Assembly: GCF_002854065.1 (NCBI RefSeq) | Contig: NZ_CP024147.1 | Source of the DNA: Escherichia coli | GTDB lineage: Bacteria > Pseudomonadota > Gammaproteobacteria > Enterobacterales > Enterobacteriaceae | Direction: 5' to 3' (one strand) | Length of the DNA stretch: 64,000 nt | Part shown: in pieces, positions 54,001 through 57,000 of the stretch | How positions within the stretch are numbered: the stretch's first letter is position 1 | Layout: each line of letters begins with the position of its first letter | Made by a program: the position numbers

Positions 54001-57000
54001 CTGCCAGGGTTAAAATTTGTCCCCGTTGATAATCCTTATTTTGCGGCTCCAGAGAGAGCGCCTTTTGCCACAGTGTAAGCGAGTTTTGCCATTGTTGCAG
54101 GTTACGATAAGCGACGGCGACAGCTGCATAACCACGCGCTGGTAATTGCTGATAACGGTAGCGGTTGTAAACGGTAATAACCTGTTTATCTTGCCCGGCC
54201 CATAAGGCTATCTGTAACCAGTCAGCAATTTGGTTATTACTGAGTGCTGATTTTTGTGCAAACCATAACAAAGCTGGCTGAGTATTTCCCTTGCGAGCTT
54301 CAATAATCAATGCATCATAGGCGTTATTAACGGCACTCTTCGCCACGGGACTCGCTGCTAAAAATGCGGCAGTAAGAATTTTCAAAGCCCATTTGGTTTG
54401 CGGGACCTTTTTCTGCTACTTGAATACATCCTGTATTACTCCATGTATTGCCAAAATCTCTCTCTGTATCTAATGACAGGTAACTGAAAAGAAAGATATT
54501 TTTTGCACCTCATAATCCGTTATTAAACGCGGAAGAGAGACGTGAATTGTTGATGATGAGAAGAAGAAATGATGAGCAGAGTGTCCATATAAAATCCTTT
54601 TCTCGCCCGAAAATCCATTCCAATGATGAGGATCTTCAGGAATACGGCATAAATCCCAATGCCTTTTTCAAAATAAGTTAGGAGTAAAATAATTAAATCA
54701 GTAAATTCCGATGCATGATTTCGGATTTTTCGAAAGTCCTGATGAAATGCAGCGTTACTGTACTCACGGATTCAATTGTTATTCCTAATATATCTATGAA
54801 TGAATGTTTTATAAGGGTTTCCTTATAACCATTTATAAATATTTGCAAGCCTGTCTGTCGCAAAGAATGTATAAAGCACTAAGATAATAATAATTGCGGC
54901 CTGCAACTATCATTATCGGTATTGTTTGTGAGTGGATTTTCATATTGACAACTGTACAGTTCTTATATCTATTAATTATAGAAAGGGATCTACAACCTAC
55001 AGGTTGGTGTAGCTTTATGGAAAAAGACTATTTGAGAATTAGTAGTACTGTCTTAGTGAGCTTATTGTTTGGGCTTGCTTTGGTTTTGGTGAATAGTTGG
55101 TTTAATCAGCTAGGCGTTGAGGAAGTTGTTCCACGATCAACCTATCTGATGGTAATGATTGCTTTATTTTTTATCGATACTGTTGCATTTATTTTTATGC
55201 AGTTGTATTTCATTTATGACCGTAGGCAATTTTCAAACTGTATACTTAGTTTGGCTTTTCTGAGTTGTTTGATTTACTTTGTTAAAACCGTCATTATCAT
55301 TCAGCAAATGATTGAGGGGCGTTTGACAAGCAGTGTTGTTCAAAATGACATTGCAATTTATTATTTGTTTCGTCAGATGAGTTTGTGCATATTAATATTT
55401 CTGGCATTGGTGAATAAAGTTAGTGAAAACACAAAACAGCGCAATTTATTTTCCAAAAAAATGACTTTGTGCATAAGTTTGTTTTTTGTTCTTGGGGGGC
55501 CGATAGTTGCTCACATACTTTCTAGCCATTATGAGAGCTACGATTTACACATTGCCGAGTTAACCAATGAAAATGGTCAAGTGGTTTGGAAAGCTTCATA
55601 TGTTACCATAATGATTTTCATGTGGTTAACCTTGCTTTCGGTTAATCTATACTTTAATGGTTTACGCTATGATATCTGGAATGGAGTGACGGTGATTGCT
55701 TTTTGTGCCGTACTGTACAATGTCTCTCTTTTATTTATGAGCAGGTATAGCGTGTCCATTTGGTATATTAGTCGCACTATTGAAGTAGTCAGTAAGTTAA
55801 CCGTTATGGTAATATTTATGTGCCATATATTCAGTGCGCTACGAGTAACAAAGGACATTGCACATCGCGATCCCTTAACCAATATATTTAACAGAAATTA
55901 TTTTTTTAATGAACTAACGGTTCAATCAGCATCGGCCAAAAAAACGCCTTATTGCGTCATGATTATGGATATCGACCACTTCAAAAAAGTCAACGACACC
56001 TGGGGGCATCCGGTTGGCGATCAGGTGATAAAAACAGTGGTGAATATCATTGGGAAAAGCATACGGCCAGATGACCTTTTTGCGCGCGTCGGCGGCGAAG
56101 AGTTTGGCGTCTTGCTGACGGACATCGATACTGAACGTGCGAAAGCTTTAGCGGAAAGGATTCGGGAAAATGTTGAGCGTTTAACTGGTGATAATCCTGA
56201 ATACGCCATACCACAAAAAGTGACGATTAGTATTGGCGCTGTTGTGACTCAGGAAAATGCGTTAAACCCGAATGAGATCTATCGACTGGCTGATAACGCA
56301 CTATACGAGGCGAAAGAGACCAGGCGTAATAAGGTGGTTGTGAGGGATGTGGTGAATTTTTGTGAGTCACCATAAAGCGGCATTTTAGCGGGTGATTTTG
56401 GTAAGCGCTAAATAGCTATTCGCAGACATGCGTAACAATTTTCAGAAATATCATAGTACTATATGATCTTAAGGTGATGCTGCCAACTTACTGATTTAGT
56501 GTATGATGGTGTTTTTGAGGTGCTCCAGTGGCTTCTGTTTCTATCAGCTGTCCCTCCTGTTCAGCTACTGACGGGGTGGTGCGTAACGGCAAAAGCACTG
56601 CCGGACATCAGCGCTATCTCTGCTCTCACTGCCGTAAAACATGGCAACTGCAGTTCACTTACACCGCTTCTCAACCCGGTACGCACCAGAAAATCATTGA
56701 TATGGCCATGAATGGCGTTGGATGCCGGGCAACCGCCCGCATTATGGGCGTTGGCCTCAACACGATTTTCCGCCATTTAAAAAACTCAGGCCGCAGTCGG
56801 TAACCTCGCGCATACAGCCGGGCAGTGACGTCATCGTCTGCGCGGAAATGGACGAACAGTGGGGATACGTCGGGGCTAAATCGCGCCAGCGCTGGCTGTT
56901 TTACGCGTATGACAGGCTCCGGAAGACGGTTGTTGCGCACGTATTCGGTGAACGCACTATGGCGACGCTGGGGCGTCTTATGAGCCTGCTGTCACCCTTT

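Follow-up and report, generated by a model that had tools for sequence, protein, structure and literature searches.

A one-base deletion in codon 9 of pgaA that marks a small Escherichia coli clone and probably inactivates the gene

In a 64,000-nucleotide stretch of an Escherichia coli genome (contig NZ_CP024147.1 of assembly GCF_002854065.1; hereafter the window), the pgaA gene lacks a single G in its ninth codon. This deletion very probably makes pgaA a pseudogene throughout a small clone, with PgaA lost or greatly reduced. PgaA is required for the export of PGA, the biofilm sugar poly-beta-1,6-N-acetyl-D-glucosamine. The frameshift is already known as such, in that the NCBI annotation pipeline (PGAP) labels the identical copy in strain 100416 a 'frameshifted' pseudogene, and it is a case of ordinary gene decay. 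As in K-12, pgaA is the first gene of the pgaABCD operon and is divergent from dgcT; in the window pgaB and pgaD are intact, and pgaC is interrupted by an IS1 element. Previous work established the need for PgaA in PGA export (PMC9384988, PMC4287979) and described its domain layout, a TPR domain followed by a beta-barrel (PMC9384988). The features of the pgaA region, in window coordinates, are listed below.

52007–54429, minus strand: pgaA pseudogene, 2423 nt, annotated 'frameshifted' by PGAP in the identical 100416 copy and matched by NF007468.
54439–54442, minus strand: GGAG Shine-Dalgarno sequence of the authentic ATG, the same as in K-12.
54430–54433, minus strand: AGGA adjoining the ATG, a GGA motif of the kind bound by CsrA (CsrA sites according to PMC4052769).
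54382–54429, minus strand: residual 15-codon reading frame from the authentic ATG, closed by the TGA at 54384–54382.
54416–54418, minus strand: TAG that closes the body frame upstream.
Between 54404 and 54405, minus strand: site of the 1-nt deletion, at which the alignments show codon 9 (TGC, Cys) to have lost its G in the window.
54383–54385, minus strand: TTG that encodes Leu16 in wild-type PgaA and is the first start in phase with the body, with no usable Shine-Dalgarno sequence.
52007–54385, minus strand: 792-codon PgaA body, comprising a residual signal-peptide core, the TPR domain and the beta-barrel porin.

The minus-strand sequence around the authentic start reads ...GGAGTAATACAGGATGTATTCAAGTAGCAGAAAAAGGTCCCGCAAACCAAATGGGCTTTGAAAATT..., and the ATG at 54429–54427 opens a frame of only 15 codons, MYSSSRKRSRKPNGL. 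A functional gene would present an uninterrupted 807-codon reading frame from this ATG; here that frame stops after codon 15, and the 792-codon body lies in the −1 phase relative to it. An earlier note on this DNA, made from the sequence alone, had described a short frame behind a ribosome binding site and a body in another phase that is blocked upstream by the TAG, and both descriptions are borne out by the reading frames. The authentic ATG is well equipped for initiation, with its GGAG at a spacing of 8–9 nt and a predicted anti-Shine-Dalgarno pairing of −5.9 kcal/mol. For the TTG, the best such pairing reaches −2.4 kcal/mol and has a spacing of 1 nt, which is unusable, in agreement with the earlier statement that this codon lacks a ribosome binding site; the accompanying statement that it is the sole in-phase start does not hold, as GTG 54346, TTG 54310 and TTG 54271 are also in phase, all of them within or after the signal peptide. 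The stop of the 15-codon frame and the start of the body overlap by 2 nt as TTGA (TTG 54385–54383, TGA 54384–54382), an arrangement of overlapping stop and start codons that is found in termination-reinitiation. The region upstream is the 234-nt pgaA leader, which contains six CsrA sites, the last two on the Shine-Dalgarno motif and on the AUG, as well as a Rho-dependent terminator (PMC4052769). Around the Shine-Dalgarno motif and ATG this leader is identical in the window and in K-12.

Comparison with intact alleles locates the lesion precisely. The window reads AGGT-CCCG where EC93, K-12, 33F4 and TUM13936 read AGGTGCCCG, and its pgaA spans 2423 nt as against 2424 nt (807 aa) in K-12, EC93 and 33F4, which confirms the proposed shortfall of one nucleotide. 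Alignment with K-12 pgaA shows exactly one base missing, the G between 54405 and 54404, inside the interval 54404–54406 in which a single-base loss had been predicted. Had reference PgaA proteins begun at the downstream site, nothing would have been disrupted; instead, the intact alleles of K-12, EC93 and 33F4 read in frame from the upstream ATG, and PGAP places the start of their 807-aa product at that same codon. The K-12 gene (ycdS), encoding the PGA export porin of pgaABCD, occupies the same locus with the same neighbours (dgcT, pgaA-pgaB-pgaC-pgaD, phoH). Relative to it, absence of the codon-9 G breaks the 807-codon frame in two, a leader of 15 codons and a body of 792, the body being identical to the K-12 protein at 776 of 791 residues; the TPR domain and PgaA_barrel are present in both. 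One substitution in the body is specific to the lineage (T345I, window 53397; compared with TUM13936, 33F4, EC93 and K-12). As to relaxed selection on the body, we make no claim on dN/dS, as a single substitution gives no statistical power. More broadly, of 5426 complete E. coli genomes, 4291 were matched by a 311-nt query around the site, and in each case the match fell in a feature bearing the annotation pgaA. The deleted G sits in the context GGTGCCCG, which contains neither a run of G nor a repeat. Phase variation of the kind seen in simple-sequence-repeat contingency genes was rejected on the same grounds, there being no homopolymer or tandem repeat at the deleted G.

The body itself is readily recognized as PgaA, scoring above the PgaA equivalog-model cut-offs. 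NF007468 (NCBIfam PgaA) aligns to it over profile positions 17–817 of 817 with 1426.3 bits against a cut-off of 1043, and TIGR03939 with 967.9 bits against 366.65, position 3 of the latter profile falling on residue 3 of the product that would start at the TTG. The identical 792-aa product also carries PF21197 (PgaA_barrel) and a faint TPR_2 match, that is, the TPR and beta-barrel combination expected of the protein. The earlier note had held that the frameshift removes the N-region of the signal peptide. Indeed, the positively charged n-region (residues 1–15) is uncoupled from the rest, but the hydrophobic core and the cleavage region stay in the body frame: the TTG product begins MKILTAAFLAASPVAKSA, with one Lys, the full hydrophobic core ILTAAFLAA, and the c-region and cleavage region retained. 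Its maximal Kyte-Doolittle value over nine residues is 2.38 as against 2.30 for wild-type PgaA, which we regard as the same. Because TIGR03939 aligns from position 3 and NF007468 only from position 17, the 15 residues of the n-region are an enterobacterial extension that the family as a whole does not require.

The deletion is rare, and it is shared. Among the 4157 complete E. coli genomes that contain the region, a 60-nt query centred on the lesion has an exact match in two, 100416 (Gambia, human stool) and CUWW06 (Thailand, wastewater), both complete genomes; the next 58 matches listed span 61 nt, i.e., they carry the extra base. All nine other assemblies checked contain the deletion string, namely 100416, CUWW06 and seven drafts (L006–L012), and the exact 792-aa product occurs on at least 23 contigs, the index listing it in 40 blocks of the collection. 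The carrier genomes differ from the window by 0–4 SNPs per 10 kb and have different local structures. Over shared sequence the window is 100% identical to CUWW06 and 99.94–99.96% identical to 100416, and structurally it is unlike either. In 100416 (NZ_CM128593.1), the 'frameshifted' pgaA (ACU5SM_RS15060) is 100% identical across the 2423 nt and has the same deletion; this strain differs from the window in its intact pgaC, in 48 extra bp by the IS1 downstream of dgcT, and in an island beside tRNA-Ser, which is missing from the window. The pgaA remnant of CUWW06 (NZ_CP182139.1) likewise has the deletion, with flanks 100% identical to the window. From these comparisons, the carriers are independent samples of one clone. 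The closest other allele, that of TUM13936 (NZ_CP134358.1; 99.7%), is also 2423 nt long and also a 'frameshifted' pseudogene according to PGAP, and its pgaB, pgaC and pgaD protein accessions are the same as those of 100416. It retains the codon-9 G, however; the base it has lost belongs to an A6 run (TTAAAAAAGAC) and corresponds to the A at window position 53519, so that its frameshift either arose independently or may be an error in sequencing the homopolymer.

Several other readings of the pgaA frames were weighed against loss of function. Single-base indels are the commonest assembly error, and the G might accordingly be present in the cell; this is hardly credible, given that the deletion recurs in each of the nine other assemblies checked, which come from different countries and vary in local structure, and lies outside any homopolymer of the deleted base. 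Since it is shared in this way and lies in such a context, the deletion is a real, vertically inherited single-base loss that marks a small E. coli lineage. Nor is it at all probable that PgaA truly begins at the downstream site and that the upstream ATG reflects mere annotation habit, in which case nothing would have been lost. The family-wide TIGR03939 does begin near the TTG, but NF007468, which operates at the level of E. coli, includes the extension and meets the body only from position 17. Furthermore, the next-best 60-mer matches listed carry the extra base, K-12, EC93 and 33F4 are in frame from the ATG, and it is the ATG, not the TTG, that has a Shine-Dalgarno sequence and mapped CsrA sites over that sequence and the AUG (PMC4052769). 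Recoding deserves slightly more consideration and is still very improbable. With the body in the −1 phase, a −1 slip of tRNA-Lys on A_AAA_AGG (54412–54406, with the rare AGG in the A site) would give an uninterrupted 807-codon reading and an 807-aa PgaA (MYSSSRKKVPQTKW...). The zero-frame codons, however, are AGA AAA AGG, which provide no in-frame X_XXY_YYZ heptamer and only single-tRNA slippage on A_AAA. Wild-type alleles contain the same AGAAAAAGG, and a slip there would do harm; the split frame is confined to one clone (two exact 60-mer matches among 4157). Any slip would be expected at background frequency. No stimulatory RNA structure was detected downstream of the site (minimum free energy −27.9 kcal/mol, with shuffled sequences averaging −29.6 kcal/mol; z = 0.52). 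Programmed −1 frameshifting was therefore rejected: there is no heptamer and no structure, the motif is identical in the wild type, and the split frame is not conserved.

The most serious alternative, although unlikely, is that the allele is hypomorphic, with ribosomes re-initiating at the UUG that overlaps the leader UGA (UUGA) and producing PgaA without residues 1–15. The N-terminus MKILTAAFLAASPVAKSA would then still act as a Sec signal peptide, and some PGA would be exported wherever pgaBCD is intact. The 2-nt overlap is an arrangement able to support termination-reinitiation, and the TTG product keeps its Lys, the core ILTAAFLAA and the c-region. In addition, the TIGR03939 alignment implies that many PgaA homologues do without the 15-residue enterobacterial extension, and residue 32 is the first in constructs of mature PgaA (PMC9384988). 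PgaA expression may thus not be zero. On the other hand, translation starts poorly at a UUG that lacks a Shine-Dalgarno sequence, and the operon is already under tight CsrA repression (PMC4052769). The body frame is still open, and pgaBCD still intact, in 100416 and each of the seven drafts, which is expected for a young clone and is also compatible with residual function; retention of the frame says nothing about selection, because the clone is so young (0–4 SNPs per 10 kb). Moreover, a second disruptive pga lesion is present in two of the three fully resolved lineage genomes, and in the window strain pgaC is broken in any case. A related suggestion is that the first 15 codons constitute an accidental, translationally coupled mini-leader (UUGA), in which case the gene would not be dead but a natural, down-tuned allele for PGA. 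We consider this unlikely; if true, members with intact pgaBCD would still produce, at a low level, a PgaA shortened at its N-terminus, whose minimal signal peptide is typical of the wider family.

Loss of function is thus the reading we favour, and most likely no PgaA, or very little, is made. Ribosomes starting at the CsrA-controlled authentic ATG would terminate after 15 codons, leaving the remaining 792 codons with the TTG, which has no Shine-Dalgarno sequence, as their start. The TPR and beta-barrel pore through which PGA crosses the outer membrane would consequently be lost or greatly reduced. Because 2.4 kb of pgaA mRNA would be left untranslated, polarity on the downstream genes is expected as well, with Rho-dependent termination probably lowering pgaBCD expression. 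Selection on PGA would then be relaxed, and decay of the operon goes on, as represented by the IS1 in the window's pgaC and, in CUWW06, by a deletion flanked by IS1 that extends from pgaA to pgaC. If PgaA is lost, the clone is predicted to be unable to export PGA. Automated gene callers have given a 792-aa, TTG-initiated protein on at least 23 contigs; the interval 52007–54429 is better called a pgaA pseudogene. The finding is of little importance beyond strain biology. It concerns a well-characterized and dispensable biofilm gene.

The other lesion of the pga operon in the window, which was absent from the earlier note, is found among the following features.

49980–51998, minus strand: pgaB, intact, 672 aa.
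49160–49927, minus strand: IS1, 768 bp, inserted after pgaC codon 20, with 9-bp target duplications CCCCTATGC at 49151–49159 and 49928–49936.
47885–49159, minus strand: 3' part of the glycosyltransferase gene pgaC, cut off by IS1 from the first 20 codons (49928–49987).
47470–47883, minus strand: pgaD, intact, 137 aa.
55017–56375, plus strand: dgcT (ycdT), divergent diguanylate cyclase gene, intact, its start taken from the 1359-nt PGAP coding sequence in relatives.

The IS1 in pgaC is absent from the other lineage members examined for it, namely 100416 and the seven drafts, and also from TUM13936. It would constitute a second, independent knockout of the operon, and in the window strain PGA synthesis is probably abolished as well, whatever the state of pgaA, which bears on the biofilm phenotype of this strain. 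CUWW06, the closest relative, has an IS1 of the same orientation (L004 6464–7209) in place of window positions 48100–53992, so that pgaB is gone entirely, along with most of pgaC and four-fifths of pgaA at its 3' end. This structure may derive from a window-type pgaC IS1 through deletions next to it on each side, or from insertions that occurred independently and then recombined. Together, these genomes appear to record a stepwise decay of the operon within the clone, from a point frameshift to an IS1 insertion and then an IS1-flanked deletion.

A pgaA match is present in 4333 of 5426 complete E. coli genomes, and about 20% have none; the PGA system is therefore dispensable, and its loss thus appears to be a recurrent and ordinary event in E. 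coli. Natural variation by IS1 and frameshifts has been described at the same locus in enteroaggregative E. coli 55989, in which the ycdT-pga region is remodelled (PMC4287979). There, an IS1 lies between ycdT and pgaA and was proposed to raise pga expression, and ycdT carries a frameshift (PMC4287979), whereas the window lesions lie inside pgaA and pgaC and are disruptive. Routine decay of the locus is also seen in K-12 GM4792 (L003 1187–2544), with dgcT annotated as 'frameshifted' and an IS3 beyond it.

Several neighbouring features of the window were recorded. Downstream of dgcT, an IS1 (56473–57240, and 57264–57749) truncates a gene annotated as 'outer membrane lipoprotein-sorting protein' and is common to the whole lineage; the 48 bp present beside it in 100416 (L005 18697–18744) are missing from both the window and CUWW06, which looks like a small IS1-adjacent deletion. 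Between dgcT and ycdU lies an accessory cluster (57746–60089) that encodes a hypothetical protein of 462 aa, unmatched in both NCBIfam and PADLOC, together with a FabD-like ACP S-malonyltransferase that scores 178.7 bits with TIGR00128, below the 260.9-bit cut-off. Some relatives carry a beta-ketoacyl-ACP synthase in the same interval, and the cluster may be the remnant of a small island of the fatty-acid or polyketide type. Another hypothetical protein, of 442 aa (40209–41537, minus strand; WP_032280695.1 in 100416), is encoded between putP and efeU; NCBIfam and PADLOC gave no match to it, and Pfam no significant one. Some 1.2 kb without an annotated gene (41538–42709) separates it from efeU. 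A tRNA gene at 61448–61532 (minus strand) is annotated as tRNA-Ser in CUWW06 and other relatives. Colinearity with 100416 ends at window position 61458, where an integrase, a fragment of DUF3987 and an inverse-autotransporter gene with a frameshift are annotated in that strain, whereas the window and CUWW06 continue straight on into ghrA-ycdX-ycdY. Finally, directly downstream of pgaD and antisense to the 3' end of phoH, positions 47222–47415 (minus strand) match Rfam family RF02855 (Ysr251, a Yersinia antisense sRNA) with 189 bits.
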